A stretch of 64,000 bases of DNA from positions 1,018 to 65,017 of the forward strand of contig DFOW01000004.1 in assembly GCA_002376885.1 (NCBI GenBank). The letters run 5' to 3'. Origin of the DNA: Patescibacteria group bacterium UBA3531. GTDB lineage: Bacteria > Patescibacteriota > Minisyncoccia > Phycocordibacterales > UBA3531. Position 1 is the first letter of the stretch. Each line of letters opens with the position of its first letter. Below are positions 14,933 through 56,636 of the stretch, one piece after another. A program made the translations under genes and the position numbers. The notes below the pieces were generated by a model. That model did not search any database, was not told where the DNA came from, and saw only the letters and a list, made by a program, of their open reading frames with translations.

Positions 14933-14957
14933 TGTCCCGTGGAATTTTAACAGGACA
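14933..14957 (-). promoter_or_regulatory. Conserved 25-bp palindromic motif (TGTCCCGT-N9-ACGGGACA family) about 42 nt upstream of the glyQS start
   Basis: tgtcccgtggaattttaacaggaca, followed in gene orientation by the conserved leader TTAAGAATTTTATTAGG-ATG. Confidence 0.55.
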
Positions 14958-14959
14958 GG

Positions 14960-15331
14960 TTACAATAGTTGTTTTATATTCTCGGGTGGTCTTCCAAGCA
15001 CAGCACGATCCCCTCGTTCAATAATGGGCCGTTGCATAAGGTCTGGATACTGTATCATAAGATCAATATATTCGTCATCGGTAAGCTCTTTATCTTTTAA
15101 TTTGAGCTCTTTATACTTCTCCTCGCTTGTCCGCACAAGCTCACGCGGAGTAATCCCAAGCTTTTCTATAAGCCCCGCAAGTTTTTTATGAGACAAAGGA
15201 TTGGTATGGTATTCCCACACCTCATATGCCATCATGGCTTTATCCAAAATAGCGATTGTTTCTCTGCATTTTGAGCACGTAGACTTCTCATACACCACCA
15301 AGTGCGAATCTTCGCTATTTTTTTCTGACAT
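14960..15331 (-). CDS. ArsC/Spx-family protein (arsenate reductase-like)
   Basis: CSKCR redox motif near the N-terminus and an ArsC-family fold. Confidence 0.7.
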   Translation of the reverse strand: MSEKNSEDSHLVVYEKSTCSKCRETIAILDKAMMAYEVWEYHTNPLSHKKLAGLIEKLGITPRELVRTSEEKYKELKLKDKELTDDEYIDLMIQYPDLMQRPIIERGDRAVLGRPPENIKQLL

Positions 15332-15381
15332 GGTTAAATTGTACCTATAATTTGTTATTATCGCCAGACACAAAAACAAAC

Positions 15382-16020
15382 ATGAAAGACGACATTATCC
15401 TTATAAACAAACCCCCGGGAATCACATCATACGATGTTATCCGCAAACTTAAACAAAAGTTCCCAGGAGAGAAGCTTGGCCATGCCGGCACCCTTGATCC
15501 TCTCGCAGAGGGGCTTTTACTGGTTGGGATTGGGAAAGGCACAAAAAAACTAAAAGACTTAATCGGGTTCCCTAAAACCTATGAAGCAACTGTTCTTATT
15601 GGTAAGAAAACAACAACCGGAGATTTGGAGGGAGATATTACTGAAGAAAAGAATGTTGAGAGTCTTACTGAAAAAGAAGTCCGGGATGTTTTAGAAGAGC
15701 TGACAGGAATAATCAGAATCCCTATTCCCCTTTATTCTGCTATTAAATACAAAGGTAAGCGCTTGTATAAACATGCTCGAGAGGGCGCAGACATAGAGAC
15801 ACCCCATGGTGATATGGAAGTTCATTCAACCACCTTAAACAACCTAAAAAAAGAAGGGGCATATTATTATCTTGATCTTACGCTTTCTGTTGGGAGCGGG
15901 ACCTATATTCGCTCAATTGCAGAAGAGATTGGAAAACGTTTAGGATACCCCGCGACCACAGCCCATCTTAAAAGGACATCTATTGGAGAGTATTTTTTAG
16001 AAGATGCGCAAAGCATATAA
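15382..16020 (+). CDS. truB: tRNA pseudouridine(55) synthase
   Basis: GHAGTLDP catalytic motif. Confidence 0.9.
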   Translation: MKDDIILINKPPGITSYDVIRKLKQKFPGEKLGHAGTLDPLAEGLLLVGIGKGTKKLKDLIGFPKTYEATVLIGKKTTTGDLEGDITEEKNVESLTEKEVRDVLEELTGIIRIPIPLYSAIKYKGKRLYKHAREGADIETPHGDMEVHSTTLNNLKKEGAYYYLDLTLSVGSGTYIRSIAEEIGKRLGYPATTAHLKRTSIGEYFLEDAQSI

Positions 16021-16024
16021 AACA

Positions 16025-16050
16025 AAAATACCCCGAGTCGGGGTATTTTT
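16025..16050 (+). terminator. Rho-independent terminator after truB
   Basis: aaaataccccga-gtc-ggggtattttt. Confidence 0.7.
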
Positions 16051-16067
16051 GTTTGGTCAATTTCAAA

Positions 16068-17246
16068 TTAAGACCAGAGTCTGTTTTTGAGTAAATGAAG
16101 CACACTTCCAAATGTTGCAAGGAAGAGAATAAACGATGCCAAGAACCCAATAACAGGAATAAGCATGAGTGCCAAAAGCACTACCACTCCTACAATCGCT
16201 GTTACCCAATCAAGTCTGATATCATCGCTTCGTGTTGCAAGCTTAATAGCAAGCGCTCCAATAACCACACTTGTTGCAAGTTTTGCAGCAAGTAATACGG
16301 TCATGTATCCAAGTCCAAGCAAGAAACCAAGAGGCATTCCAATAAGGGTAATGAGAAGAATGAATGCCAAAATTGGGAGAATAATGAGCGCCACAAATCC
16401 TACTCCTACACTCTTCCAAAATGATCGTGCTACATGAGACACGACACTTCGTGTTCCATCTTTTGCTGCGTAGACAAGAATAAGAGCCACCACCAAAAGC
16501 ATAAGGGCCATGGTTGTTACCCCAAATCCTAGGATTTTTTCTCCTGTTGGAGGGGCATCGCTTCTCATAACTTCTTCAAAGGTGAGTTCTCCTCGAACCG
16601 TTGCACCTTCGTCAATTTTTGCTTCTTTTGACGATTCATAGACACCACCACCAATGTTTGCGCCGTTACCAATCACAAGTCCGTCTTGAACTTTTGCATT
16701 AAGTGACCCAAGAATTGTTCCATTGATCCGGAGTTCTCCTCCTTCAACTCGAACATCTCCTGTTACCGTTCCGTCAATCGTGGTAAGTCCACCAAACACA
16801 ACCACATCTCCTGACACGGTTGCGCCCGATACCAAGTGCACTACCCCACCAGCGGCGACAACATCACCACCAACAGCATTTGCTACTTGAACGTTTCCTC
16901 CTGCTACTCGAAGATCATCTCGGACAAATCCCAAAATGTTTACGTCACCCCCTGCAACAAGAGCATCCCGGCCAACACCACCAGAGACAGTTACATTACC
17001 CCCTGCTCCAATAAGGTTCCCGGATGTTTCTCCAAGAACAGTAACTTCACCTCCTGCAATAAGAAGGTCTCCTATAACGTTGCCTGAGAGTGTTGCAACA
17101 CCCGCAGCAACGTACAAATCGTCACGAACGGTTTCTCGTTCAGGAAGAGCAAACTCCTCTCCCCCTTCAAAGGTTGCTCCATACACAGTCGCCGTTCCAA
17201 AAACTGCGACAAACAAGAGCACACCCAAGGCTATAAATTTATTCAT
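16068..17246 (-). CDS. Bactofilin-like (polymer-forming cytoskeletal, DUF583-type repeat) protein with signal peptide and C-terminal multi-TM region
   Basis: Tandem AGG(N/D)V.V.G repeats typical of bactofilin beta-helix proteins, followed by three TM helices. Confidence 0.5.
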   Translation of the reverse strand: MNKFIALGVLLFVAVFGTATVYGATFEGGEEFALPERETVRDDLYVAAGVATLSGNVIGDLLIAGGEVTVLGETSGNLIGAGGNVTVSGGVGRDALVAGGDVNILGFVRDDLRVAGGNVQVANAVGGDVVAAGGVVHLVSGATVSGDVVVFGGLTTIDGTVTGDVRVEGGELRINGTILGSLNAKVQDGLVIGNGANIGGGVYESSKEAKIDEGATVRGELTFEEVMRSDAPPTGEKILGFGVTTMALMLLVVALILVYAAKDGTRSVVSHVARSFWKSVGVGFVALIILPILAFILLITLIGMPLGFLLGLGYMTVLLAAKLATSVVIGALAIKLATRSDDIRLDWVTAIVGVVVLLALMLIPVIGFLASFILFLATFGSVLHLLKNRLWS

Positions 17247-17282
17247 TATAAAAAATGCTAGTTATTAATACCTACGTTCTAC

Positions 17283-17520
17283 CAAAAAACGGGACTCTCT
17301 ACAAGGAGGCAAGGTTAAAGGCCCGGCCGCCGAAGCGAACCGGGCCTTCTTCAACCTGAGAGTGCTCCAGCCGGAGCAGTTAGACGTGTCAGTGACATCC
17401 TTTGGCGTGAGGGTAGCCACATCGGGCCTCTCCACTTGCAGCCGGTCTCAGGCGGGGATGGTTTGAGACAACGAAGCCGGTTGAACCACCACCCTGCACG
17501 TGCTGGAAGCAGTCTAACAA
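17283..17520. other. GC-rich (~60%) ORF-poor intergenic island; candidate structured ncRNA or decayed GC-rich cassette
   Basis: Sharp GC jump between two AT-rich minus-strand genes. The minus strand has a GC hairpin (ggcccgg...ccgggcc) followed by a U-run. Internal direct repeats GGAGCAGTTAGAC and GGAAGCAGTCTAAC are present. Confidence 0.3.
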
Positions 17521-17570
17521 TTTGTATTTAAAAATCAACCCCGTCAAATAACCCCACAGGGTTAGCTTCG

Positions 17571-18344
17571 CTATTTGACCGGGTCAAGCTCTATCCCTAC
17601 TGGGCAGTGATCACTACCCAAAACATAATCTAGTATAAAAGCGCTTTTGAGATTCTTTTGCACATCAGGGCTCGTAATAAAATAGTCTATTCTCCACCCC
17701 ACGTTGCGGTCTCTGGCACGACTCTTCATATCCCACCAGCTGTAAGCATCACGTCTGTCAGGGTAAAAATGCCGAAAGGTATCAATATAGCCAGCGGCCA
17801 TAAGCTCATCAAACCAGGCGCGTTCTTCTTCCCGGAAGCCTGCCCTGCCTTCGTTTTCTTTTGGGCGGGCCAGGTCAATCTCTTCGTGGGCAACATTTAA
17901 ATCCCCACACATTACCACCTTGTGACCCTTTTTACGGAGTCCTTCCATAAATTCTAAAATCGCATCGTTGTATTCGAGCTTCATAGGAAGACGTTCTTCC
18001 ATACCACTGTTTGGAAAGTAACAGTTTATGAGTACAAAATCTTTAAAATAAGCAACGAGTGTTCGTCCTTCGTCATCAAATTTTTTAACACCAAATCCTT
18101 TTTCTACCCTCTCGGGTTTTATTTTTGTATAAATAGCAACGCCATTAAACCCTTTACGTTTTTTTGTATGGTCAAAATATCCGGTGTAGCCGTCGGGATT
18201 CTTTAATTCATCTACCAAATCCACTTCTTCTGCCTTTGTTTCTTGAAGACACAAAATATCGGGACTGTCGTCATATAACCAATCCAAAAATCCATTTTTG
18301 TGAGTCGCCCGTAACCCATTCACATTCCAAGACAATATTCGCAT
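17571..18344 (-). CDS. xthA: Exodeoxyribonuclease III
   Basis: MRILSWNVNGLRA...QETK N-terminal and GSDHCPV C-terminal motifs. The longer upstream extension in the ORF track is GC-rich and probably not translated. Confidence 0.9.
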   Translation of the reverse strand: MRILSWNVNGLRATHKNGFLDWLYDDSPDILCLQETKAEEVDLVDELKNPDGYTGYFDHTKKRKGFNGVAIYTKIKPERVEKGFGVKKFDDEGRTLVAYFKDFVLINCYFPNSGMEERLPMKLEYNDAILEFMEGLRKKGHKVVMCGDLNVAHEEIDLARPKENEGRAGFREEERAWFDELMAAGYIDTFRHFYPDRRDAYSWWDMKSRARDRNVGWRIDYFITSPDVQKNLKSAFILDYVLGSDHCPVGIELDPVK

Positions 18345-18435
18345 GAACTCGATTATACCAGACAAACTTGCAATAAAGGCCCTAGTTATATAAATTGGAT
18401 ACGGACTGGCAATCATGCCTGAAAGGAGCAGTACC

Positions 18436-18903
18436 GTGCAGGAGCACACCCATTCGTGGTCTGGCACCCAGATCGAAGGTTTCCGGCTGGTTGCCGGAGC
18501 AGAGATCCGAGGTACCGACCGCTACGATTCCTCGACGGGCAAGTGGGAGCCTCCGCCCCCTGCTGTCGGCCGCAACATGGACGACCCCTACGATCGGGGC
18601 CTCACCCTCGAGGAAGGGTGCCCGACCATGTGGATTCGTCCGGAGCTCTCCGACAACACGAAGGAGCTTCTCATGCTCCTCCGAGCGCGGCTTCTCGACA
18701 TCCATGAGAAGAGCATGACGGCTACGCGTCTCCCGATCGGGAGGTGGGAGCAGTATCCCGTCCCCAGCCGAGAGAGCGTGCAGGAGCTTCGTGACTGCGG
18801 GCTCGTCGCCCCCTACCAGGGCAAGACCTACGAGACCGAGTTCACGACGGTTCTCCGCCTGACGGAGCTCGGAAGGGAGACCGCCGAAGGACTCCTCTCC
18901 TGA
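18436..18903 (+). CDS. GC-rich cassette gene: hypothetical protein (GTG start after SD AAGGAG)
   Basis: About 62% GC. Upstream is TTGCAA...TATATA. It is followed by the hairpin terminator ggccccggccgcg...cgcgccggggcc. Confidence 0.45.
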   Translation: MQEHTHSWSGTQIEGFRLVAGAEIRGTDRYDSSTGKWEPPPPAVGRNMDDPYDRGLTLEEGCPTMWIRPELSDNTKELLMLLRARLLDIHEKSMTATRLPIGRWEQYPVPSRESVQELRDCGLVAPYQGKTYETEFTTVLRLTELGRETAEGLLS

Positions 18904-18912
18904 TCAACCAGA

Positions 18913-18953
18913 GGCCCCGGCCGCGTTCACACGCGCCGGGGCCTTTCATTTTT
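18913..18953 (+). terminator. GC-hairpin terminator (copy 1 of a duplicated terminator)
   Basis: ggccccggccgcgttcacacgcgccggggcc followed by tttcatttttg. Confidence 0.6.
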
Positions 18954-19044
18954 GTTGACAATATATTTTTTATATTGTAATTTTTTTTCAGGTGTACACG
19001 CGACGCAGTCGAGAGACACTGTCGCAAAAACACAGGAGCAAATC

Positions 19045-19698
19045 GTGTCTAGAAAAAACCTTGGACTGGACGTTGGACAAGCTCAGGAGCTCAAGCTTGC
19101 CTTCAGGCGTCATGATTGGGACAATGAGCTCATCAAGCGACTTTGCGAATCGAATATCCTGGGCGACGCCCTCGACATCCTTCGTGGAGACGCGCAAGCC
19201 GTTCCGATCGAACGTGTCGTCGACCTTGGAGCGGAGCCTGAGATCAAGGACGGTAGTGTGGTCGTCAAGCACGTGAAGCAGGGGGTGAAGCCTTGGCGCG
19301 ACATTCGTCTCGCCCTCATCGACCCCAGGGATCTGCACTACACCAGACTGGGGATCCCTTACGACCAAGAACCGCCTGATCAGAGGATCATGGAGATCAA
19401 CCCTCGAACCATGAGGCCACACTTCCTGAAGGGACAGCGCCCAGCGAACATCCTCATGAGGGATTTTCTCCTCGAGATCCCTCATCTGATCCCTCACGAC
19501 TGGGTCCCCAGGGCCCCAATCGTGTTCTGGGGGACGGTCTGCAAGAGCGATACCACCTACTGGGTTCCCGGGATCAACCAGGACTTCGGCGGGTGGTACG
19601 CTCACGATTGCCGGGTGGAGATGCCTCGCGATCGCATCATGCTCCGTAACTACGACAACCCCTGCGTCGTCCTGACGTCGGCACCGTCGATTGTCTGA
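19045..19698 (+). CDS. GC-rich cassette gene: hypothetical protein (GTG start after SD CAGGAG)
   Basis: About 60% GC ORF followed by a near-identical copy of the 18913 terminator. Confidence 0.45.
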   Translation: MSRKNLGLDVGQAQELKLAFRRHDWDNELIKRLCESNILGDALDILRGDAQAVPIERVVDLGAEPEIKDGSVVVKHVKQGVKPWRDIRLALIDPRDLHYTRLGIPYDQEPPDQRIMEINPRTMRPHFLKGQRPANILMRDFLLEIPHLIPHDWVPRAPIVFWGTVCKSDTTYWVPGINQDFGGWYAHDCRVEMPRDRIMLRNYDNPCVVLTSAPSIV

Positions 19699-19709
19699 AG
19701 TGTTCTGAT

Positions 19710-19750
19710 GGCCCCGGCCGCGTTCATGCGCGCCGGGGCCTTTCGTTTTA
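19710..19750 (+). terminator. GC-hairpin terminator (copy 2)
   Basis: ggccccggccgcgttcatgcgcgccggggcc followed by tttcgtttt. Confidence 0.6.
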
Positions 19751-19765
19751 CTATTATTCCCCTAG

Positions 19766-19891
19766 CACAACTTTCAAAAGAGCTCTCGGAGCCCGAGCGG
19801 GCCGGTGTCCCGCTTGCAGGACGAGCGAGGGTGAGAGCGAGCAAAAAATCCCCGCTGGGGGATTTTATTGCGTGTCTTTTGAAAGTTTGTG
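19766..19891 (+). repeat. MITE-like GC-rich repeat, copy A (TIRs CACAACTTTCAAAAG ... CTTTTGAAAGTTTGTG)
   Basis: Shares the core AGAGCTCTCGGAGCCCGAGCGGGC...GAGCGAGGGTGAGAGCGAG plus a 3' hairpin/T-run with copies at 34582, 45986 (inverted) and 49193. Confidence 0.65.
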
Positions 19892-19898
19892 CAAAACC

Positions 19899-21212
19899 CT
19901 AGTAACTCAAAAGCCTCTTCGCCTTCTCATGTGTCCTAATCTTCTCATGCGCCTTTGCTTCAATTTGCCTAATTCGCTCTCGGGTCACTCCAAACTCCTG
20001 CCCCACTTCTTCAAGCGTTCTCATTACCCCATCGTTTAATCCATAACGCATTTCAAGAATCTTTCTTTCTTTTGGTGAAAGGTCTCCTAAGATTTCACGA
20101 ATCTGATCTGCCAAAATTCTGCGGGCACTTTCATTATCGGGTGACAAAATTTTATCGTCTGGAATAAATTCTCCCAGTGTTGATTGTTCGTCTCCACTAT
20201 CCCCCACCGGCTTTTCGAGCGAGATGGTTGTTTGATTAATCTTTTCAATCTGATGAACCTTTTCTACTTCAATTCCCATTTCAGTTGCAACTTCCTCAGG
20301 AAGCGGTTCGCGTCCCAAGTCTTGCGACAATCGCCTTACAATTTGCTTATACTTTGCGATGGTTTCAACCATGTGCACGGGAATTCGAATGGTTCGAGAT
20401 TGATCGGCAAGTGCCCGGGTAATACTTTGCCTGATCCACCAGGTTGCATACGTTGAGAACTTAAATCCTTTGGTGTGATCAAACTTCTCTACCGCCTTAA
20501 AGAGCCCCAAATTTCCCTCTTGAATAAGGTCAAGGAGCGTAAGATCGGGACTCCTACCAATGTATTTTTTAGCGATAGAAACCACGAGTCTCAGGTTGGC
20601 TTTAGCGAGCGCTTTTCGTGCTTCATCGTCCCCTTCTAAAATTTGCTTTGCAAGATCTTTTTCATCTTTTGCACTAATCAATTTATATTGACCGATTTCT
20701 TTAAGGTACATTTGCACAGAGTCAAGAGATGGATCACCTTGTGGCAAATTCTTTAGAATATCATCTTTGTCATCGCCATCAGTATCGAGATTAATAAATC
20801 CACCCGATTCTAAAACATCAATTTGTGCTTCGCTAAATCGTTCATAAAGTTCCTCTAAAAAGAGGATATTATTCTCTACATCTGGGAATTCTTTTAAGAG
20901 CTCACTGTAAGTAACAAATCCTCTTTTTTTACCACGCCTAATAAGAGCGTCTGCTTTTGACTCAAGATCCTCCTTCTTTTTTGAAACACGTCTTGTTGCT
21001 TTTTTTGTGGTTTTTTTGGCAACCTTTTTCTTAGCTACTTTTTTGGTTTTTGTAGCTTTTTTTGTTGTTTTTTTAGCTACTTTCTTTTTTGAAACTTTTT
21101 TTAATGCCTTTTTTTTACTTGCCCGTCCGGTCGCCGGGCTTGTTTTTTTAGCCACCTTTTTTCGGGTGGTTTTTTTAGCCTTCTTTTTAGTTGTCTTCTT
21201 TTTTGCTGGCAT
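19899..21212 (-). CDS. rpoD: RNA polymerase sigma-70 factor RpoD with an N-terminal lysine/alanine-rich (histone H1-like) tail
   Basis: Regions 1.2-4 are conserved. The first ~75 aa are KKTT/AKK repeats. Confidence 0.9.
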
Positions 21213-21255
21213 CCTAATAAAAATTCTTAATTAATAACGTTTTGTGACACGTGTT

Positions 21256-21280
21256 CGTCCCGTGGAATTTTAACAGGACA
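21256..21280 (-). promoter_or_regulatory. Conserved 25-bp palindromic motif about 44 nt upstream of rpoD (between dnaG and rpoD)
   Basis: tcgtcccgtggaattttaacaggaca, plus the conserved leader ATTAAGAATTTTTATTAGG-ATG in gene orientation. Confidence 0.55.
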
Positions 21281-21285
21281 AGTTC

Positions 21286-22989: not shown

Positions 22990-23013
22990 TCGAGTAGAAT
23001 ACTATTATTTTAT

Positions 23014-34524: not shown

Positions 34525-34581
34525 CCAAAGGGCGCGAACGTTCATTCGTTCGCGCCCTTGCTGTATATTTTCCAACGTTAC

Positions 34582-34690
34582 GTTTTTAAGAGCTCTCGGA
34601 GCCCGAGCGGGCTGGTATCCGCAGGATGAGTGAGGGCGAGAGCGAGAAAAAAATTCCCGCCGGGGAATTTTATTTCGTGTCTTAAAAATG
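34582..34690 (+). repeat. MITE-like GC-rich repeat, copy B
   Basis: AAGAGCTCTCGGAGCCCGAGCGGGCTGG...GAGTGAGGGCGAGAGCGAG plus the aattcccgccggggaatt hairpin. Flanked by inverted TTTTTAAGA. Confidence 0.65.
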
Positions 34691-34703
34691 TAATGTTAGC
34701 TTC

Positions 34704-36971: not shown

Positions 36972-37673
36972 CTACTCCCACCCCATCTTCGCCAGCCCTT
37001 CGTGCGCTGCATTTTGCTCTGCCTCCTGCTTTGAGGCCCCTGTCCCTTCCGCAATATCTTCGTCGGCGATAAAAAGACCAACGGTAAATACTTTGGCATG
37101 GTCGGGTCCATCTTCATTCAAGACTTTGTAAGTAGGAGTAACACCCCTTTTTTCTTGAGAAAGTTCTTGAAACCGACTTTTGGCATCTTGCCACAGTTTT
37201 TTATCTACAATCTCTTGTGCTTTGGGTAACAAAACTCGTGCAATAAATTCTTGCGCTTTTGCGTATCCTCCATCTAAATATAGTGCTCCAACGAGCGCTT
37301 CAAAAGTATTTGCCAAAATATATGAACGAGCGCGCCCCACACTATTTGCCTCTCCTTTTGAGAGAAGTAGGTAGTCATTAAACCCAAGATCATGCCCTAT
37401 ACTGCTTAGCATGTGTGTATTTACAAGCGCAGCACGGATAGCCGTAAGTTCCCCCTCTGGTTTGTCTGGGTAGAGTCCAAAAATATGCTCGGTTACCACA
37501 AGCTCAAGAACCGCGTCTCCTAAATATTCTAGCCGCTCATTGTGCCCAAGCGTTTCACCTGGGTTCTCGTTTATGTATGAACGATGAATAAACGCTTGAC
37601 GCAGTAAATCGTTATTGTCGAAATGAAGATTTGTTGTGTTTAAAAATTCTTCAAAGTTACTCTCTCCTTCCAT
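36972..37673 (-). CDS. rnc: Ribonuclease III
   Basis: ERLEYLGDAVL signature plus a dsRBD. Confidence 0.95.
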   Translation of the reverse strand: MEGESNFEEFLNTTNLHFDNNDLLRQAFIHRSYINENPGETLGHNERLEYLGDAVLELVVTEHIFGLYPDKPEGELTAIRAALVNTHMLSSIGHDLGFNDYLLLSKGEANSVGRARSYILANTFEALVGALYLDGGYAKAQEFIARVLLPKAQEIVDKKLWQDAKSRFQELSQEKRGVTPTYKVLNEDGPDHAKVFTVGLFIADEDIAEGTGASKQEAEQNAAHEGLAKMGWE

Positions 37674-45784: not shown

Positions 45785-45985
45785 AGGGGTTTTCCATTCA
45801 AAAGAAGTACTACATCATTTTAGATGCAAACAATGTAATAAGTGGTGGAGTGTTGGTGATGCGCCTTCTCGTAAGAAGATATGGTACTGCCCTTGGTGTG
45901 GTGCACAACAGTAATAAATTTGGTATTGCTTGCCCGTTTTAATTCAAGAGAATTTGATTCGGGCGCATGGTGTGGGACTGAACAA

Positions 45986-46113
45986 CACTAACTTTCAAAA
46001 GATACGAAATAAAATTCCCCAGCGGGAATTTTTTTCTCACTCTCACCCTCGCTCATCCTGTAAAACAGGACACCGGCCCGCTCGGGCTCCGAGAGCTCTT
46101 TTGAAAGTTGTGT
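45986..46113 (-). repeat. MITE-like GC-rich repeat, copy C (inverted orientation)
   Basis: The reverse complement matches copy A nearly end to end, including the TIRs CACTAACTTTCAAAAG / CTTTTGAAAGTTGTGTT. Confidence 0.65.
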
Positions 46114-46246
46114 TAGGAAATAAAAAGTTTATTAGCATCCACAGGAGATTTGCTTGGTTAAAAAATCTCCGAGGATAGAGCGAGTCTCCGCCGGAGAGAC
46201 GAGCGTCTGGTAAACTTTTTATTTACACAACACACTCTCAAAACAA

Positions 46247-46709: not shown

Positions 46710-46741
46710 ACTGTTTTATTTTTCTATTGTTCAAATTCGAC

Positions 46742-47506: not shown

Positions 47507-47507
47507 A

Positions 47508-48053: not shown

Positions 48054-48064
48054 ATTTCTATCTG

Positions 48065-49159: not shown

Positions 49160-49192
49160 CCCATTAGAAATTTACACTAATAAAATTAAAAA

Positions 49193-49321
49193 ATAATATC
49201 CCTGAAAGAGCTCTCGAGTCCGAGCGGGCATGGTTTTTGCGGAAGCAAAAGAGCGAGGACGAGAGCGAGAGCCAAAACCATCGCTGGTTGTTTTGAGCTC
49301 GTGTCTTTCGGGGATATTATT
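49193..49321 (+). repeat. MITE-like GC-rich repeat, copy D (divergent)
   Basis: AAGAGCTCTCGAGTCCGAGCGGGC...GAGCGAGGACGAGAGCGAGAGCC core. TIRs AATAATATCCCTGAAAG / CTTTCGGGGATATTATT. Confidence 0.6.
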
Positions 49322-49370
49322 TTTATTATATGTGTGCGTTAACATGGTGAATTTCTAACGGGACAAGTAC

Positions 49371-49655
49371 CTACACATTTAAGAGTTTTAATATTTGCAA
49401 AAGTTTATGCGCCTCTTTGCTGTTGGTAATTTGGTAACACATCATTTGCCCACGACGAAAGCACTCAACCACACCTCGCCCTTCAAGCTTCGCTAATTGA
49501 TGAGAGGTGGCAGAGTGTGTTGCCCCAATAGCGTGCGCAATTTCGTTCACACACACTTCTCTATCTTCTTTTATTAAGTACGAAAGAATCTTAACCCGAG
49601 TTGGATCAGAAATAAGTTTTATAGTGTCTGTTGCCTCAAGAATCGCTCGTGTCAT
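49371..49655 (-). CDS. ArsR/SmtB-family transcriptional regulator
   Basis: Winged HTH with ELCVCDL-like VCVNEIA and HQL.L motifs. Confidence 0.85.
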   Translation of the reverse strand: MTRAILEATDTIKLISDPTRVKILSYLIKEDREVCVNEIAHAIGATHSATSHQLAKLEGRGVVECFRRGQMMCYQITNSKEAHKLLQILKLLNV

Positions 49656-49661
49656 AAATAT

Positions 49662-49690
49662 ATGAATATATGTTCATATATTAACAATAA
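49662..49690. promoter_or_regulatory. Candidate ArsR operator: AT-rich inverted repeat ATATGAA-N6-TTCATAT immediately upstream of the arsR start
   Basis: aaatatatgaatatatgttcatatatt. ArsR/SmtB repressors typically autoregulate via a 12-2-12-type palindrome. Confidence 0.4.
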
Positions 49691-49766
49691 AGCAATGGGT
49701 GTCAACCCTGTTAAATAAGCACAACAGTGCTTGCCCTCGGTATTTAACAGGTTCAAATGTGGAAAA

Positions 49767-50213: not shown

Positions 50214-50221
50214 GTGTATAG

Positions 50222-50671
50222 CTAACCCTCATCTTCTGAGCAAATTATATCTTTGGTTTTCTCTCCATTATTATCTTCTCCCCAAACAGTATACCTCCAC
50301 CACGTCGGTATAAATCGAATAAAATACATGCCTGGTTCGTCTTTGTATGTCTCTGCCTCTTTGATTTTACCAAAGTGGATATTTTGCACCTCAAGAAGAT
50401 CTTCTTTGCCCACCACTTGAGCAGTTCCATCCAGTTGAAGAGTTTTCATCTCATGTTCAGAGAAACCAATTACCACTGTTGCTGGAATTTCTCCTCCTTC
50501 CAACAATGCCTCGCTTTTTCTGTAAGCCTTTTCTGTAAAAAAATAAATTTCGGATACATCGTCTTTTGACGACATGTGTAGTGTCGCCCCGTGGGGGTTG
50601 CCGTCTTTCCTTAACACAGAAAAAACTGCCACCCTACTGTTTTTTACAAAGTTCTCTATCTCCTTTTTCAT
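50222..50671 (-). CDS. Pyridoxamine 5'-phosphate oxidase-like (FMN-binding split barrel) protein
   Basis: VAVFSVLRKDGNPHGATLHM pattern typical of the PNPOx-like family. Confidence 0.55.
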   Translation of the reverse strand: MKKEIENFVKNSRVAVFSVLRKDGNPHGATLHMSSKDDVSEIYFFTEKAYRKSEALLEGGEIPATVVIGFSEHEMKTLQLDGTAQVVGKEDLLEVQNIHFGKIKEAETYKDEPGMYFIRFIPTWWRYTVWGEDNNGEKTKDIICSEDEG

Positions 50672-50674
50672 GAC

Positions 50675-52732
50675 TTAAATATCTAAGTTAGCGAGCTTTG
50701 CATTGTTTTGGATAAAGCTCTTGCGAGGACCAACTTCGTTACCCATCAAAATATCAAAGATTTTATCTGCCTCCACAGCGTCATCAATGGTCACTTGTTT
50801 AAGCACTCTGTTTTCTGGATTCATACTGGTCTCCCACAGCTCTTGCGCATTCATTTCTCCAAGTCCCTTGTATCGCTGTACTGAAATCTTAGGAGTACGC
50901 TTTTTAGTTTTTGCTTCTTTCTCTTTTTCTTCGGTTTCTTCTCCTTCACTTCCCTCTTCATCAGAATCAGTTGGGTCCTCATCTACCGGCATTTCATCTC
51001 CTGCAACTTCAATTTTTTGGTCTTCAGTATAAGCATAGGTAACCTCTTTCCCCTTCTTGATTTTATAGAGTGGTGGTTGCGCCACATATACATTCCCTGC
51101 CTCAATAAGTGGTTTAAAGTATCGGTAAAACAATGTCAAAAGAAGGGTTCGAATATGAGAACCATCAACGTCGGCGTCGGTTGCGATAATAATTTTGTGA
51201 TATCGAAGCTTTGAAATATCAAACGTGTCTCCAATAGCAGAACCAAGAGCAATTACCATTGATTTAATCTCTTTGTTTGCAAGCATTTTATCGATTCGTG
51301 CTCGTTCAACGTTCAAAGGTTTACCACGAAGTGGTAAGATCGCTTGGGTTCGCCTGTCGCGCCCTTGTTTTGCGGTACCACCAGCAGAGTCTCCCTCTAC
51401 AATAAAGAGCTCTGCCTCTTCTGCTTTTCGTGTTTGGCAATCCGCCAACTTCCCTGGCAAGGTCATCCCTTCAAGAGCACCCTTTCTAAGAACACTATCC
51501 TTGGCCGCTTTAGCAGCTTTGCGTGCAGAGAGTGCCAAGTTTGCCTTTGAAATGATTGCTTTTGCGTCATCAGGATGTTCTTCCAAAAAGCTTGAGAAGG
51601 TTTCTCCCATAAGGGCTTCTACAGCACTCCTGGCCTCTACGTTTCCAAGTTTTGCTTTTGTTTGTCCTTCAAATTGTGCATCTGTAAGTTTTACCGAAAC
51701 AACAGCTGTGATTCCTTCGCGCACATCATCTCCTGAAAACGTTTCTCCATTTTTAAGAAGATTGTTCTTTTTTCCGTAATCATTGATGGCGCGAGTCAGT
51801 GCTGTTCTGAACCCAGTAATATGAGTTCCTCCTTCTGGAGTTGAAGTATTGTTTGCAAAACCAATCTCTTTTACCGAAAGATCGTCAACGTACTGAAGTG
51901 CAATCTCGATAATCATTCCATTCACTTCTTTTTCTACATAAAAAATGTTTTTATGAATCGGCTTTTCGTGAACATTGTAAAACTGAACAAGCGACAAAAG
52001 TCCGCCCTCAAAGTAAAAGGTTTGCGATGGAACCGGAAGTTTGAGGTCATTTATAAAAAAGGCTTCGTTAAAGTCTGCTTTGCCGGCATAGTTTCGTGCA
52101 TCAATAACACGAATACGGAGACCCTTGGTAAGGTAGGCCTGCTCTCGCATTCGGTTAACGATTTTATCGAAGCTGTAAACGGTTTCAGAAAAAATTTCTG
52201 CATCCGCCTTAAAGGTAACAATGGTCCCTGTCTTTTTTGAAGTTCCGAGTTTTTTAACAGCGGCTTTCTTTTTACCTCGTTTGTATTCTTGAACGTACCG
52301 TCCGCCATCTCGGTGCACCTCGGCACGCGTCCATTCAGAAAGCGCATTTACTACCGACGCACCCACACCATGGAGTCCTCCTGAGATCTTATACCCAGAG
52401 TCATCAAACTTTCCTCCCGCATGGAGTGTTGTCATCACCGTCTCAAGTGCAGAAACGCCTGTTCGTTTATGCTTTGCCACGGGAATACCAGCACCATTAT
52501 CTACCACCCGAACAACTTCTCCTGGCAAAAGGGCAACCTCAATTTGGTCAGCTGTTCCTGCCATTGCCTCGTCTCTTGAGTTATCAAAAATCTCAATTAA
52601 AAGGTGGTGGAGACCTTCGGGACCCGTAGAACCAATATACATTCCCGGTCGTTTTCTAACCGGCTCAAGACCCTCAAGAACTACAATATTCTCGGCGTCG
52701 TAATTTCGTGATTTAGCGCTTTGTTTAGCCAT
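50675..52732 (-). CDS. gyrB: DNA gyrase subunit B
   Basis: GHKL ATPase, TOPRIM (EGDSAGG) and C-terminal tail. 685 aa. Confidence 0.9.
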   Translation of the reverse strand: MAKQSAKSRNYDAENIVVLEGLEPVRKRPGMYIGSTGPEGLHHLLIEIFDNSRDEAMAGTADQIEVALLPGEVVRVVDNGAGIPVAKHKRTGVSALETVMTTLHAGGKFDDSGYKISGGLHGVGASVVNALSEWTRAEVHRDGGRYVQEYKRGKKKAAVKKLGTSKKTGTIVTFKADAEIFSETVYSFDKIVNRMREQAYLTKGLRIRVIDARNYAGKADFNEAFFINDLKLPVPSQTFYFEGGLLSLVQFYNVHEKPIHKNIFYVEKEVNGMIIEIALQYVDDLSVKEIGFANNTSTPEGGTHITGFRTALTRAINDYGKKNNLLKNGETFSGDDVREGITAVVSVKLTDAQFEGQTKAKLGNVEARSAVEALMGETFSSFLEEHPDDAKAIISKANLALSARKAAKAAKDSVLRKGALEGMTLPGKLADCQTRKAEEAELFIVEGDSAGGTAKQGRDRRTQAILPLRGKPLNVERARIDKMLANKEIKSMVIALGSAIGDTFDISKLRYHKIIIATDADVDGSHIRTLLLTLFYRYFKPLIEAGNVYVAQPPLYKIKKGKEVTYAYTEDQKIEVAGDEMPVDEDPTDSDEEGSEGEETEEKEKEAKTKKRTPKISVQRYKGLGEMNAQELWETSMNPENRVLKQVTIDDAVEADKIFDILMGNEVGPRKSFIQNNAKLANLDI

Positions 52733-52765
52733 ATTTACCTGAATATCTTAGCATATTTTCTAGCA

Positions 52766-52794
52766 AAAATCCACCTTATTTCAGGTGGATTTTT
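52766..52794 (-). terminator. Rho-independent terminator downstream of pheS
   Basis: aaaaatccacct-tatttc-aggtggattttt. Confidence 0.6.
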
Positions 52795-52823
52795 GGGGGT
52801 AAAATAAGGAGATTTTAGGGGAT

Positions 52824-53978
52824 CTATTCTCTTAGTTCCCCACCGAAGTCACTCTTCGTCATTTCTTCAATTTCTTCGTGAACTTTATTCACTTCTTCGT
52901 TAGTAAGAGTTCTATCCAAATGTCTGTAGATAATTCGAAAAGTGTAACTTGTTTTTCCTTTGCCAAACTTTTCTTCGTTTTCGTATTTATCGGTTTGGTC
53001 CATTTCCTCAATCATGTCTTCTGCAACATCGCGAACCGAATCAAAATAATCATTTAAAACAAAATCTTCTCCGACAATAAATGAAATGTCTCGCAACACT
53101 GGTGGAAATTTAGAAACTTCTTGATACGTTTGTCCAAGTTTGAGTTGGCGTTTTACTCGAGCGTCTGGCGACCATAAAAGTCTAATGTCAGGGAGCTTCA
53201 TAGAAGCGATGGCGAGTCGTTCAAGACCAAACCCAAACGCCCAGCCGTTGTAGCCTTCTAACTTCAGATTCTTTAATACGCTCTTGCGAGGGAGTCCTGA
53301 ACCAAGCATCTCTACCCACTCACCGTTAATAAATGCCTCCATCTCAAAACTTGGATCAGTGTAGGGGAAGGTGTCATCGTTAAACCTAATTTTTGTCTCT
53401 GCCCCAAAAATACTTTTTGCAATATCAGAAAGCACCTCTTTTAATTGGTCCCCCGTAACGGTTTCTTTTTCATCAGGAGCCAAGTAGAGTCCCCCCATTT
53501 GATGGAAGACATTCATGTGTTGTCGGTCAATCTCATCCTTCCGGTACACCTTTCCAAAACAAAGTGCTCCAAATGATTCTTTATTTTTTATCTTTTCTTG
53601 AATTTCTGGCTGATTGAAGTAGTAATACCAAAATACCGTATCGTGTGTCCGCAAAACATTTGCCTCATCCACATAGTACGTATCAGACTTGCTTCGAGAC
53701 GGATGCCCTGGAGGCATGTTAAAGAGATCAAATAAAATATCTACCGGGACAATCTCGGGGATCTTAATAACATCAAAACCCTTAAGACCCTCTACGGTTA
53801 AGGTTCGTTTTACAATTTCATTTAAAGGATTCCCTTCTGTCCGAGAAAGATCCGGCATAGAAAGGAACCGTTTAAGGCGTGCTGAATCGGGATCGTCCCT
53901 ACCTTCAAGCTCTTTTTTTAGCTCTGTTTCTTTGGGAGTCTCTACAAGAATTGTGTCTAAGCTGGTGTCTTCTTTCAT
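52824..53978 (-). CDS. pheS: Monomeric (mitochondrial-type) phenylalanine--tRNA ligase: PheS-like catalytic core fused to a C-terminal FDX-ACB anticodon-binding domain
   Basis: Class II motifs (FRNDDTFPYTDPSFE, GWAFGFGLERL) plus a C-terminal FPPVLRDISFIV...YTFRIIYRH domain resembling the ferredoxin-fold anticodon-binding domain of PheT/mtPheRS. No pheT is seen nearby. Confidence 0.75.
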   Translation of the reverse strand: MKEDTSLDTILVETPKETELKKELEGRDDPDSARLKRFLSMPDLSRTEGNPLNEIVKRTLTVEGLKGFDVIKIPEIVPVDILFDLFNMPPGHPSRSKSDTYYVDEANVLRTHDTVFWYYYFNQPEIQEKIKNKESFGALCFGKVYRKDEIDRQHMNVFHQMGGLYLAPDEKETVTGDQLKEVLSDIAKSIFGAETKIRFNDDTFPYTDPSFEMEAFINGEWVEMLGSGLPRKSVLKNLKLEGYNGWAFGFGLERLAIASMKLPDIRLLWSPDARVKRQLKLGQTYQEVSKFPPVLRDISFIVGEDFVLNDYFDSVRDVAEDMIEEMDQTDKYENEEKFGKGKTSYTFRIIYRHLDRTLTNEEVNKVHEEIEEMTKSDFGGELRE

Positions 53979-54032
53979 GGTTGCATCACCAAGTATAGCT
54001 AAAAATGCCTAGGTGACAAGACTAAAAAAGAC

Positions 54033-54446
54033 TTAGAAGTTTTGGATTGAAATATTCCAATCTTTTGATTTTTTGAAGAGGTCAGTACCTTTAATTATAT
54101 AGACCACATCAAATTGCTGTTTTCTTTTTGGGTAGTTTTGAAACTCAATAACAAAGTATTTCAATATCTCCTTTAAAGGAATCTCCAGAGTGATGAGTGA
54201 GCCGTGCTCCTTTTTGGCATATGATTTGGCAATCTCTTCTCTATCAGTAAAATACTGCCGCGTAAACGGTTGGATCTTAAACATTTTGGTCACAATACTG
54301 TTTAAATCTTCTGGGTAGGAAAGATCTCCTTGGGCCCTCCGTCTTAAAATCTCAAGCCATCCTTCATTAAACTTTTCCTCAACTTCTTTATCTTTATGGG
54401 TAAATTCACTTGATTTTATGCCCCTATAAAGTTTTAGTGTTTCCAT
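54033..54446 (-). CDS. Hypothetical protein
   Basis: 137-aa ORF with good coding statistics and no recognised domain. Confidence 0.4.
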   Translation of the reverse strand: METLKLYRGIKSSEFTHKDKEVEEKFNEGWLEILRRRAQGDLSYPEDLNSIVTKMFKIQPFTRQYFTDREEIAKSYAKKEHGSLITLEIPLKEILKYFVIEFQNYPKRKQQFDVVYIIKGTDLFKKSKDWNISIQNF

Positions 54447-54448
54447 GA

Positions 54449-54970
54449 CTACTCTGGCACATTAATAATCTCTATACCTCTAGGCAGGCTACTTTTAATT
54501 CTCTCATATACTTCAGAACTCAAGACAGACACACCACCTAAAAACCCCTCGTTCTGTTCTTCTATAAGGAGAATCGCATCGCTAATCTCTTGTGCAACTT
54601 CTTCCTCCTTCAAACCAACGGTTCCAGCCGCAAGTAATGGGAAAACAATACTTTTATATCCATCCGCAATAGCCATCTCCAGAGCTTTTACTGTCGTTTG
54701 TTGCACCTCAGGCAAAGAAAGTTTTGCCTTGGTCTGCCAGTTTATTGTTGGTATATGATAAATAGCTTTAGCTTTGAGATTGCCTGGACCAGAAGAAAAA
54801 ACTTCACCAATAGCTCCTGGAGAATTTTTTTGAACTTCCTGAAAAACCTTTTTACCTGCTTTCTTTTCAATCCATCGCGCTAAACCACCCCCAGGTGTAA
54901 AATCCGCATCAGATGCGTTTACGATCACATCGACAGGAGCATTAGTAATATCCCCGACATATATTTTCAT
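54449..54970 (-). CDS. Macro-domain protein (ADP-ribose binding / O-acetyl-ADP-ribose deacetylase-like)
   Basis: MKIYVGDITNAPVDVIVNASD...GGGLA...AIYHIP macro-domain motifs. The start was moved to the internal Met to avoid overlap with tRNA-Thr. Confidence 0.7.
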   Translation of the reverse strand: MKIYVGDITNAPVDVIVNASDADFTPGGGLARWIEKKAGKKVFQEVQKNSPGAIGEVFSSGPGNLKAKAIYHIPTINWQTKAKLSLPEVQQTTVKALEMAIADGYKSIVFPLLAAGTVGLKEEEVAQEISDAILLIEEQNEGFLGGVSVLSSEVYERIKSSLPRGIEIINVPE

Positions 54971-54971
54971 G

Positions 54972-55044
54972 AGCCACCCGTCGGACTCGAACCGACGACC
55001 CACGCTTTACAAAAGCGTTGCTCTACCAACTGAGCTAGGGTGGC
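54972..55044 (-). tRNA. tRNA-Thr(UGU), no encoded CCA
   Basis: GCCACCC acceptor, D-arm GCTCAGTTGGTAGAGC, anticodon loop TTTGTAA, T-loop TTCGAGT. Confidence 0.85.
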
Positions 55045-55642
55045 ATGTTTTTTTATATTCCTCAATCCATCCGTTAATAATCGTCAACAGCTCTTTGTCG
55101 GAATATCTGAGTGAAAGAGTACCATATTGTGCAGAGGTTTTATAGGTCCCCCTTCCTCCCTTATGGACATATGGCTTACTAAATTGAGACATCGGAATCC
55201 CTGTTATTTTTGACCAAAATTTTGTTACTTTCTCTTTATTGTGTTCTGGATACAAATGGATAAGTGCTCTTAGCCGACCTTCTGAAACGCCACAGACATT
55301 CCTAAGAAACTGCAAGAAGACCTGAATCATTTGTGGATCACTATTACTAAAAACTACTCCGTTTCCCTTTTTCGTACCCTCACCCCAATAAAGCATTACA
55401 CCAGCAATCCTAATTTCTTCTAGCTTTCTTCCTCTTTTTGTTTTTATTGTAAAAGAACCTTTTTTGTGTTTTGTTGTGTTTAGATATCGTATTGCCTCAC
55501 TTCTATCTCGCCGTTTAACACCAGCGCTATCAAGTAGACTCCTTACTTTCCAAACTTTTATATTTGTAAGATCTGAAATTTGTTTAACAGAGAGTTTTTT
55601 CTGTACGTACAAAAACTCAATCTTTTTTTCTAGATGCGCCAT
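55007..55642 (-). CDS. HTH-containing protein with a degenerate LAGLIDADG-like motif (possible homing-endonuclease-like DNA-binding protein); 3' end overlaps tRNA-Thr
   Basis: N-terminal HTH (LSVKQISDLTNIKVWKVRSLL). IAGVMLYWGEGTKKGNGVVFSNSD resembles a LAGLIDADG core. The last ~12 codons run into the tRNA gene. Confidence 0.3.
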   Translation of the reverse strand: MAHLEKKIEFLYVQKKLSVKQISDLTNIKVWKVRSLLDSAGVKRRDRSEAIRYLNTTKHKKGSFTIKTKRGRKLEEIRIAGVMLYWGEGTKKGNGVVFSNSDPQMIQVFLQFLRNVCGVSEGRLRALIHLYPEHNKEKVTKFWSKITGIPMSQFSKPYVHKGGRGTYKTSAQYGTLSLRYSDKELLTIINGWIEEYKKTCHPSSVGRATLL

Positions 55643-55684
55643 GGTGAAACAATAGCACACCTATTGTTAGTAAACAATTCTACC

Positions 55685-56083
55685 CTATTCTACAATGTGC
55701 CCTGTACCATTCTTTTTTGCATCTTCCTTATGAACAGATATATTCTTCATGTAAAGAGACGCGGCTTGGCGACGTCGTGATACATCACCTTTGCCGTCAA
55801 TATAATGTACAAGTGTTGTATGGTGTTTGGCAAGAGTCCTTCGCAAGGCTCGATACCCATGCACAATATTTACCAAAAGTACCCGCAAAAAGTGGAAGAA
55901 CCCTTTTTTTGATTGATGCGCTGCATAATCACCAAGATCAAGAAGAAAGTGTTTTGTTGTCTCAACAAGTGAATGCGTTCTCTCCTCTTCTTCATGTGCG
56001 CGTCTTGCACGGGCAATAAGTACGATCGTCATACCAAGAAGAGCGCCCCATACAAGTGATCCAAAAACTATAAGAGCAGTCAT
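55685..56083 (-). CDS. Membrane-anchored hypothetical protein
   Basis: N-terminal TM helix. Basic. Confidence 0.35.
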   Translation of the reverse strand: MTALIVFGSLVWGALLGMTIVLIARARRAHEEEERTHSLVETTKHFLLDLGDYAAHQSKKGFFHFLRVLLVNIVHGYRALRRTLAKHHTTLVHYIDGKGDVSRRRQAASLYMKNISVHKEDAKKNGTGHIVE

Positions 56084-56108
56084 AAGTACCTTTTAGTATA
56101 CAGGAGTA

Positions 56109-56567
56109 TTAGCGGCCTGTGATTGAGAACCGTGTAAAGTTTCCAACTTCTGTTCGTTCACCAAACTTTTGTGTTGCAGTTTGAATAAGGTCGTCGATAG
56201 TATGAGAAGGATCTTTTACAAAATCACTTTTTACAAGCGTATCTTTATCTGCTGGATTCATGGCAGCAACATGCATTGCAATGTCGTATGCCAACTGTTT
56301 AAATTCTTCGTTTTTTGCAACAAAGTCAGTCTCACACAAAAGCTCTACAATAGCTCCAATGTCGCCATCTCCATGGATATATGCTTGAACAACACCAGAG
56401 TTTAGGTCTCTTCCTGACTTCTTTTCTTTAACGTGAGTCCCTGTTGTTTTTAGAACCTCCATGGCTTTGGCCATGTCTCCTCCCGCTTCCTCAAGAGCTT
56501 TTTTACATTGCATGACAGAAATGCCTGTCTTCTCTCGAAGCTCTTTTACTTGATCGGTTGTGATCAT
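56109..56567 (-). CDS. tsf: Elongation factor Ts (short form)
   Basis: N-terminal UBA-like LREKTGISVMQCKKALEEAGGDMAKAMEVLK. 152 aa, as in many reduced genomes. Confidence 0.9.
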   Translation of the reverse strand: MITTDQVKELREKTGISVMQCKKALEEAGGDMAKAMEVLKTTGTHVKEKKSGRDLNSGVVQAYIHGDGDIGAIVELLCETDFVAKNEEFKQLAYDIAMHVAAMNPADKDTLVKSDFVKDPSHTIDDLIQTATQKFGERTEVGNFTRFSITGR

Positions 56568-56611
56568 CCCAATAAAAATTCTTAAATGCTAATTAAATTC
56601 GACTATCTTTT

Positions 56612-56636
56612 TGTCCCGTGGAATTTTAACGGGACA
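56612..56636 (-). promoter_or_regulatory. Conserved 25-bp perfect palindrome about 45 nt upstream of tsf (between rpsB and tsf)
   Basis: tgtcccgtggaattttaacgggaca, plus the conserved leader TTTAAGAATTTTTATTGGG-ATG in gene orientation. Confidence 0.55.

Follow-up and report, generated by a model that had tools for sequence, protein, structure and literature searches.

Palindromic modules abutting the start codons of glyS, rpoD and tsf in a Patescibacteria bacterium: probable compact members of a start-codon-associated repeat family

Three copies of a compact palindromic module stand directly before the start codons of a class II glycyl-tRNA synthetase-type gene (glyS), rpoD and tsf in Patescibacteria group bacterium UBA3531, in a 64,000-nt stretch of contig DFOW01000004.1 that is referred to here as the window (Table 1). 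The module genes are on the minus strand, and at each site the gap between the stop codon of one gene and the start codon of the next is wholly occupied by the module. The genes upstream of the modules are identified by Pfam as ArsC-family, dnaG and rpsB, and those downstream agree with the glyQS, rpoD and tsf assignments of a first-pass annotation of the same DNA. That annotation had placed two of the modules, at dnaG/rpoD and rpsB/tsf, inside operons; all three modules lie between co-oriented genes. The RpoD of the window is 60-73% identical to those of Paceibacterota, Nomurabacteria and Vogelbacteria metagenome-assembled genomes (MAGs).

Table 1. Modules, older elements and associated genes in the window (position 1 is the first letter of the stretch).
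Feature	Position	Strand	Description
Compact copy 1	14892..14959	-	Entire arsC-like/glyS gap, 68 nt; palindrome 14933-14957; leader TTAAGAATTTTATTAGG at 14892-14908
Compact copy 2	21213..21285	-	Entire dnaG/rpoD gap, 73 nt; palindrome 21256-21280
Compact copy 3	56568..56643	-	Entire rpsB/tsf gap, 76 nt; perfect palindrome 56612-56636; family interior motif AGTCGAATTTAATTAGCA kept
Site 4, older full-length element (class 2)	49160..49366	-	207 nt; 5' arm ACTTGTCCCGTTAGAAATTC, 3' arm AAATTTCTAATGGG + ATG; precedes DUF3179-redoxin-DsbD operon
Site 5, older full-length element	61917..62030	-	Upstream of prfA, after rpmE terminator; holds TATAAT box
Class II glycyl-tRNA synthetase-type gene	13512..14891	-	Pfam tRNA-synt_2b + HGTP_anticodon; faint GlyRS_ins_1 match; ATG adjoins copy 1
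rpoD	19899..21212	-	Pfam Sigma70 regions r1.1-r4; ATG adjoins copy 2
tsf	56109..56567	-	Pfam EF_TS; short EF-Ts, 152 aa; ATG adjoins copy 3
RNase III gene	36972..37673	-	Pfam Ribonuclease_3 + dsrm

The 25-nt palindrome on which the first-pass annotation had been based was recovered three times in the window at up to 3 mismatches, against 0.00 expected from 100 dinucleotide shuffles, each time on the minus (gene) strand. Copies 1, 2 and 3 depart from a perfect 8+9+8 palindrome at 1, 2 and 0 positions, the tsf copy being perfect as had been claimed, and the distances from the promoter-proximal end of the palindrome to the A of the ATG are 42, 44 and 45 nt, within the 42-45 nt given earlier. The module in gene orientation reads ac(T/C)TGTCCYGT-TAAAATTCC-ACGGGACR, then a variable stretch of about 20 nt and finally TTAAGAATTTT(T)ATTRGG-ATG; this leader is common to all three modules, as the earlier description of it as nearly identical implied. 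The interior thus consists of an internal arm, ACGGGACR, that is complementary to the 5' arm, plus the ~20-nt stretch, which in copy 3 keeps the AGTCGAA-TTTAAT-AGCA motif of the wider family described below. Only transitions break the symmetry of the palindrome, and each of them still allows G.U pairs on the sense strand. The TAAAAT box results from the loss of 1 nt in the conserved arm (TTAGAAAT to TTAAAAT), and a C-to-T change supplies the TG of an extended -10 in copies 1 and 2, so that the boxes, compared with TGnTAnnnT, read TGTTAAAAT in copies 1 and 2 and CGTTAAAAT in copy 3. Scans of the gene strand found no -35 element, two-hexamer promoter or terminator at the modules, and the palindrome stems are followed by A-rich sequence, not by the U-tract of a terminator.

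Relatives differ from UBA3531 at these junctions. Locus L004, a Logan contig whose Tsf protein is identical and whose nucleotide identity is 87-94%, has the junction rpsB-TAA-t-ATG-tsf, with 75 nt fewer, and the same TAA-t-ATG junction is present in L088 (Tsf 83% identical), while the rpsB/tsf gap is 23 nt in L089 (Tsf 68%). In L223, a Tara MAG contig (RpoD 82% identical), the dnaG/rpoD junction is TAG-tt-ATG and the arsC/glyS junction is TAG-aa-ATG, a 2-nt gap. The dnaG-rpoD gap has a median of ~14 nt among 74 Paceibacteria. The corresponding spacer in L220 (RpoD 90% identical) is 70 nt long and can be aligned to the module, with the palindrome and part of the leader lost. Neither the compact motif nor the leader was found in a fuzzy search of 80 related rpoD loci. 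The exact compact palindrome (GTCCNGTTAAAATTCCACNGGAC) had no match in GTDB species genomes or JGI metagenomes, and the compact form is therefore taken as lineage-restricted. Because orthologous sites are empty or decayed, the three copies are derived, of different ages, and dispensable in relatives. [quoted passage not shown] The comparison of orthologous junctions thus shows the three modules as insertions into formerly tight, translationally coupled arsC-like/glyS, dnaG/rpoD and rpsB/tsf junctions. If this is correct, expression of rpoD, tsf and glyS has been rewired recently by insertion into junctions that were once coupled.

The modules are compact, internally shortened and lineage-specific derivatives of a large family of palindromic elements that abut start codons in Patescibacteria. 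The same ends flank ~100-120 nt in three related MAG loci (L015, L025 and L028), where each element ends on the ATG of an open reading frame (ORF) and the end positions co-vary (GAAAT/ATTTC, GAAAC/GTTTC and GAAGT/ACTTC). A gapped metagenome scan with the pattern TCCCGTTAGAA-N75-105-TTCTAAYGGGA matched at least 120 contigs and, among viral contigs, none. Anatomy was counted on 101 gene-oriented copies from the matches listed, and the tests of flanks and upstream ORFs (uORFs) used 74 copies. Family members are 97-127 nt long, with modes at 117 and 120 nt (101 copies), and carry terminal inverted repeats TCCCGTTAGAA...TTCTAACGGGA; as in MITEs, these repeats, 13 bp long and of the form TCCCGTTAGAAry / ryTTCTAACGGGA, are found in at least 150 paired copies. 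The two ends of full-length units are complementary, CCCGTTAGAAATT pairing with AATTTCTAATGGG, and the compact copies have diverged terminal repeats of the form TCCYGTTAAAATTC / GAATTTT(T)ATTRGGA. A left flank AC(T/C)TG (class 2) is common to the compact copies, site 4, L015, L100, L104, L125, L134 and L178. The 5' arm with its left flank and the 3' arm with its ATG are the same in site 4, L015, L134 and others, and both arms of site 4 are identical to those of L015, in a distant Paceibacteria MAG. NCBI assigns proteins adjoining the elements to Candidatus Doudnabacteria and Candidatus Kaiserbacteria, and the family is also present in Paceibacteria MAGs. For three of the element-adjoining genes the NCBI protein equals the translation from the ATG at the element end, the same start having been called.

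Within the window, site 4 is split by a copy of an unrelated ~125-nt repeat, and its 3' end adjoins the ATG of the DUF3179 gene. The half-site variant at 49338-49367 that had been described as degenerate does exist, and forms the 5' end of this full-length older element. Site 5, which was missing from the earlier list, has a closing helix that reaches over the ATG of prfA; in the relative L089 the rpmE-prfA spacing is only 55 nt. A covariance model (R1) built from the metagenome copies alone includes sites 5, 3 and 1 among its top five window matches, site 5 at 61914-62021 (23 bits, E=0.0014) and site 3 at 56565-56634 (16.3 bits, E ~0.1). In 1.4 Mb of unselected related loci, R1 found only L015, L025 and L028, with scores of 80.6 vs 44.1, 66.1 vs 24 and 42.8 vs 22.3 bits in gene vs reverse orientation. 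Five copies in the 64-kb window vs three in the 1.4 Mb of related loci represent a local expansion. A weak covariance-model match at 63532-63656 (minus strand; 14.3 bits, E ~0.3) overlaps the start of ORF 63127-63600, the upstream sequence of which (GGAATTAAAAAGAATTTGTG) is similar to the leader of the modules; the match may represent a sixth copy in decay, or it may be due to chance.

Mobility of the family is suggested by its presence/absence pattern, its duplication and its copy number. In 2.2 Mb of loci there are no arm pairs more than 260 nt apart enclosing an ORF, and the Pfam annotation of the window ORFs contains no transposase domain. Several variant arrangements occur. Two full elements stand in tandem in L189 (6131-6367), with only TGA between them, a mini-element of ~55 nt with both arms is found in L201 (1211-1270), and a solo 3' arm lies directly before an ATG in L106 (~2918). 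These suggest repeated insertion into a regenerated target, and internal deletion as a route to compact forms. In two distant Paceibacteria, elements precede orthologous genes for DsbA-like thiol-disulfide oxidoreductases (L025 6240-6941 and L028 11442-12233, both minus strand). Together with the element before the DUF3179-redoxin-DsbD operon of the window, this may reflect a preference for thiol-redox genes, or else mere coincidence.

The position of the family relative to genes is exact. Of 235 strand-wise pattern matches in the at least 120 contigs, 93, or about one per locus, terminate on the ATG of an ORF that is 50 aa or longer, the last A of the element plus TG forming the start codon. 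The genes behind family members are of every functional kind. In the main family the 5 nt before the element repeat the start of the gene as a direct repeat, ATGNN, and the two NN dinucleotides are identical in 65/74 copies, vs 30.9+-3.0 on permutation. The three window copies and other class 2 members have the left flank AC(T/C)TG instead of this duplication. A -10-like box ends 6-7 nt upstream of the left ATG in family copies, with TG at -15/-14 in 15 of 37 such boxes and TAAAAT as the second commonest hexamer. These boxes are read as extended -10 promoters native to putatively leaderless genes. A search for a conserved internal promoter showed that -10-like hexamers have no sharp peak by position within the elements.

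The left ATG opens a frame that is free of stops across the interior in 34 of the 74 copies (the other two frames: 10 and 9 copies); 500 shuffles gave 9.0+-2.8 open frames, with a maximum of 17. The uORF ends at a conserved TAA at -7, which is 4 nt before the true ATG, in 23 copies and in an ATGA overlap in 9, and only 1 of the 34 open uORFs is in frame with the downstream gene. Leaderless status, the promoter and reinitiation are putative features of the family. Of the 65 ORFs in the window that start with ATG and have 90 aa or more, only 5 are preceded by a Shine-Dalgarno (SD)-like 4-mer, and TAnnnT -10-like hexamers cluster 6-9 nt upstream of start codons, suggesting that its mRNAs are mostly leaderless or have very short leaders, with extended -10 promoters. 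The leaderless reading of the family fits the window because SD-like 4-mers are rare there and the hexamers lie 6-9 nt before the ATG.

The closing helix of the family is 13 bp long, and its positions 12-13 are complementary in 89 of 101 copies, with five pair types. A second helix, CGCGGWC/GWCCGCG, is present in about half of the 101 copies, and a 4-nt NYCT bulge beside it is gene-proximal in 46 vs 2. Double-sided changes number 63, vs 26.5+-5.3 in shuffles (0 of 500 reach it) and 10-20 in slid controls. The pairing of the arms covaries, which argues for nucleic-acid pairing rather than a fixed protein site. The family interior is 71% A+T and is not conserved. As to which strand is the functional one, only the wobble pairs of class 2 and the fixed orientation point to the sense strand. 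In class 2 the flank's UGU forms wobble pairs with AUG, and a G.U pair results from the sequence of the 3' arm, CTAATGGG; this pairing is available on the sense strand only.

Taken jointly, the evidence favours, at a probability of about 0.6, the reading that the modules are 68-76-bp non-autonomous mobile palindromic copies of the start-codon family that now act as expression cassettes. The copies would be transcribed with the operon and would replace the lost translational coupling. In the transcript, the 5' arm (U)UGUCCYGU would pair with the internal arm ACGGGACR to form the palindrome, or alternatively, through G.U wobbles, with the AUURGG-AUG start region, and these two states would set the exposure of an SD-less, A/U-rich start site. 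The (TG)nTAAAAT box in the hairpin loop could also start a transcript that lacks the 5' arm, freeing the start codon. The local hairpins of sites 1, 2 and 3 have predicted energies of -9.9, -13.4 and -13.5/-14.5 kcal/mol, and the long-range helix that buries the AUG -13.0, -11.7 and -10.1 kcal/mol; the two folds differ by 1.7-4.4 kcal/mol. A compensatory change, CCTG...TAGG in sites 1 and 2 vs CCCG...TGGG in site 3, keeps the long-range pair (U-A for C-G) and leaves the local stem with G.U. The earlier suggestion of a lineage-specific expression cassette comes closest to this reading, in that the module is a repeated self-contained unit ending at the ATG, with a TG-n-TAAAAT extended -10-like box such as these bacteria seem to employ. 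It did not include the complementarity of the left arm to the start region or the membership of a large family.

In the parent family, the element would lie at about +6 of apparently leaderless genes, and a uORF from the duplicated 5' AUG would read through the hairpin, the gene being translated by termination-reinitiation. Tentatively, and at somewhat less than even odds, the family can be regarded as a new kind of mobile element that is specialised in the first codon of leaderless Patescibacteria genes. Such an element would insert at about +1 to +5 of the transcript, duplicating AUGNN and thereby restoring a start codon. By means of a UAA within the terminal repeat, the hairpin-spanning uORF would hand the ribosome to the real AUG. 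In compact, SD-poor genomes the first codon would be a 'safe harbour', and essential genes would have recruited derivatives such as the window copies to serve as portable start-site cassettes.

Several observations weigh against this account. The match of R1 to site 1 (14889-14955) scores 11.4 bits with E ~2, which is weak support for homology, and R1 recovers neither site 2 nor the interrupted site 4 in the window. No transposase, and no longer element with the same ends, was found in the 2.2 Mb of loci or in the window. The compact copies have neither the ATGNN direct repeat nor the uORF by which the main family is marked. For the three modules the fold z-scores, at -0.7 to -2.0, are modest, and the compensatory change is probably a single event shared by descent. 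Over the 101 elements there is no strand asymmetry in G.U counts or in fold energy (-35.4 kcal/mol for sense vs -34.9 for antisense, p=0.23), and the pairing in the family could equally serve transposition at the DNA level rather than an RNA function.

The main competitor is a portable internal promoter, in which an extended -10 would drive glyS, rpoD and tsf without dependence on the genes upstream, and the palindrome would be incidental or inherited from the parent element. TAAAAT is present in 3/3 copies with TG at -15/-14 in sites 1 and 2, and the boxes of related bacteria described above have TG in 15/37 and TAAAAT as their second commonest hexamer. The copies before prfA and in L015 follow terminators and hold TATAAT/TATAAA boxes, and because they lie just after terminators, the genes behind them need an element-borne or adjacent promoter. 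This explanation partly overlaps the cassette reading. However, there is no -35, the two-hexamer scan of the gene strand being empty, site 3 has CG instead of TG, and TAAAAT arose by the 1-nt deletion in the conserved arm and may be fortuitous. Transcription from the box would also give a ~45-nt SD-less leader, whereas the -10 boxes of this genome usually lie 6-9 nt before the ATG, and both the complementarity of the left arm to the start region and the compensatory change would be left unexplained. As the chief function of the module, a promoter is rather unlikely. The hairpin could instead be an RNA processing or stability element, either a site for RNase III or RNase E or a protective stem-loop, that would set the downstream cistron apart from the mRNA before it, as happens at dnaG/rpoD in E. 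coli. In E. coli, both rpsU-dnaG-rpoD and rpsB-tsf are operons with known processing or attenuation, and two of the three junctions correspond to such points. The organism encodes an RNase III (Table 1), which would be a candidate host factor for processing of long hairpins, and full-length hairpins of the family reach a helix of at least 13+7 bp and about -35 kcal/mol. The compact local stem, however, is only 8-9 bp and thus short for RNase III, the family shows no strand asymmetry in fold energy, and processing leaves the exact abutment on the ATG and the conserved leader unexplained, so that this explanation is improbable.

The first-pass annotation had also proposed an operator for a global regulator of transcription or translation genes. 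A DNA operator of a dimeric factor, like that of CIRCE/HrcA, would account for a near-perfect inverted repeat (8-9-bp arms, 9-nt spacer) close before three housekeeping genes, and a regulator of the ArsR family is encoded beside site 4. Yet the palindrome is absent at the orthologous positions of relatives that are 82-94% identical, it has been lost in L220 with rpoD retained, and no similar motif occurs in the 80 related rpoD loci. The asymmetries are transitions that keep sense-strand G.U pairs, the arms covary in the family and family members precede genes of all kinds, and the arsR gene has a classical ArsR/SmtB-type palindrome of its own. On these comparative grounds an operator function is very unlikely, and the proposal of a global regulator is not supported. 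CIRCE/HrcA itself (TTAGCACTC-N9-GAGTGCTAA) was rejected as its arm sequence differs from that of the modules, and the motif of the modules is absent at the orthologous sites and in the 80 related loci.

Other identities were considered and rejected. An integron attC site would have the order of the core sites reversed relative to that seen here. An invertible promoter is contradicted by the fixed orientation (46:2) and the lack of a recombinase, and a riboswitch by an interior that is not conserved and has no aptamer-like core. For an intron or a translational bypass, the direct repeat was the only support. An intrinsic terminator or attenuator does not fit the stem followed by A-rich sequence, and no terminator was found at the palindromes in the scan. 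Rfam has no match at gathering score at any of the window sites, and none at E<=1 in 10 loci with full-length copies.

The family is apparently undescribed. No description of it was found in the papers searched on MITEs, start codons, leaderless genes or inverted repeats in Patescibacteria and the candidate phyla radiation (CPR), and a 2024 review of prokaryotic MITEs makes no mention of start codons, leaderless genes or CPR. Duplication of the start codon, a terminal repeat with a stop codon and a uORF that spans the hairpin are not found together in any of the nearest systems compared below. Putative mobile promoters, reportedly described by Matus-Garcia et al. in NAR in 2012, are near-identical upstream regions before non-homologous genes of one genome. 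That concept rests on sequence identity only, whereas a defined structure, a target duplication and a wider family are present here. REPs are located behind stop codons, at no set position relative to the following start codon, and are mobilised by RAYTs. Like the modules, REP/BIME and ERIC are described as short palindromic repeats between co-oriented genes of operons that are transcribed as mRNA hairpins (PMC2229807). The ends of the present family differ from those of REPs, and there is no RAYT/Y1 transposase domain in the Pfam annotation of the window ORFs.

Rickettsia palindromic elements (RPEs) are non-autonomous repeats of ~100-150 bp that form hairpins in a reduced genome and are translated, with usable frames kept (PMC10969869). 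The likeness is that the frame of the present family is open beyond chance and that lengths of 117 and 120 nt, both multiples of 3, dominate. RPEs, however, are in-frame peptide segments within coding regions, whereas this family is found at the first codon and duplicates ATGNN, and its frame comes to a stop either 4 nt ahead of the true ATG or in an overlap with it, with 1/34 in frame. An account of the Correia repeat-enclosed elements (CREE) of Neisseria describes MITE-like elements of ~100-155 bp with terminal repeats and a short target duplication, many copies of which are near gene starts; they are said there to be co-transcribed, to give rise to promoters at their ends in some cases, and to fold into hairpins that are sensitive to RNase III (PMC2649163). 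CREEs duplicate TA and lie at variable distances from genes, whereas the target here includes the start codon, which is regenerated by the element; there is no evidence here of an IHF site, and the taxon is Patescibacteria. With regard to translation, leaderless transcripts and small ORFs are described as common in mycobacteria, among them a uORF with a 5'-terminal AUG (PMC4633059), and 70S scanning or readthrough is presented as a recognised route of initiation (PMC9031893). The mycobacterial uORF is alike in being a small ORF with a 5'-terminal AUG, the translation of which governs the gene behind it, but it is a fixed chromosomal feature, whereas the uORF here is created by a mobile insert and ends at a conserved UAA in the terminal repeat.

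CPR bacteria are uncultivated organisms with very small genomes, and the signals that govern their gene expression have hardly been studied. If the proposed account is correct, a widespread selfish element has tied its survival to the translation start in these bacteria, and the family provides evidence at the level of sequence for many leaderless CPR genes with extended -10 promoters. It would also be a natural system in which initiation at a 5' AUG and subsequent reinitiation beyond a stable hairpin could be tested. Annotation is affected as well: where inserts are present in Patescibacteria MAGs, start codons and 'intergenic' gaps of 100-125 nt can be misread.

Some further features of the window were recorded. 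A single-chain PheRS-like protein of 384 aa (52824-53978, minus strand; tRNA-synt_2d + FDX-ACB) resembles the monomeric mitochondrial enzyme; at the same place, in the tsf-gyrB interval, L089 has ordinary pheS (255 aa) and pheT (643 aa). At 595-863 (minus strand) there is an Rfam group I intron match (629-863, 89 bits), beside which 595-623 resembles the 3' half of a tRNA and is similar to the T-arm regions of the window tRNAs; ARAGORN made no call. This suggests an intron-split tRNA gene, and all assemblies of this organism break near this region.

The unrelated repeat that interrupts site 4 belongs to a second family, ~125 nt long and of higher G+C, with copies at 19740-19900, 34550-34700, 45975-46140 (reverse), 49165-49335 and L001 120-290, that is, five copies in ~68 kb. 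It contains AAGAGCTCTCGGAGCCCGAGCGGGC, ends in a terminator-like hairpin AAAAATCCCCGCTGGGGGATTTTATT and has no Rfam match; a gene for a small RNA is one possibility, a further MITE another. Just downstream of rpoD, an island at 17500-19750 has a G+C of 0.47-0.54 vs ~0.40 elsewhere, 40-nt direct repeats as its boundaries (18913-18952 and 19710-19749), and ORFs without a Pfam match. Assemblies disagree on its gene calls, and one Logan contig stops 58 nt beyond rpoD; the DNA of the island is probably foreign or variable among strains. The region 49656-49760 (minus strand), upstream of the arsR-family gene, holds a CCTGTTAAATA...TATTTAACAGG hairpin, a TTGACA-N17-TAATAT promoter and a ATATATGAACATATATTCATATAT palindrome typical of ArsR/SmtB operators, and this gene adjoins the DUF3179-redoxin-DsbD operon.

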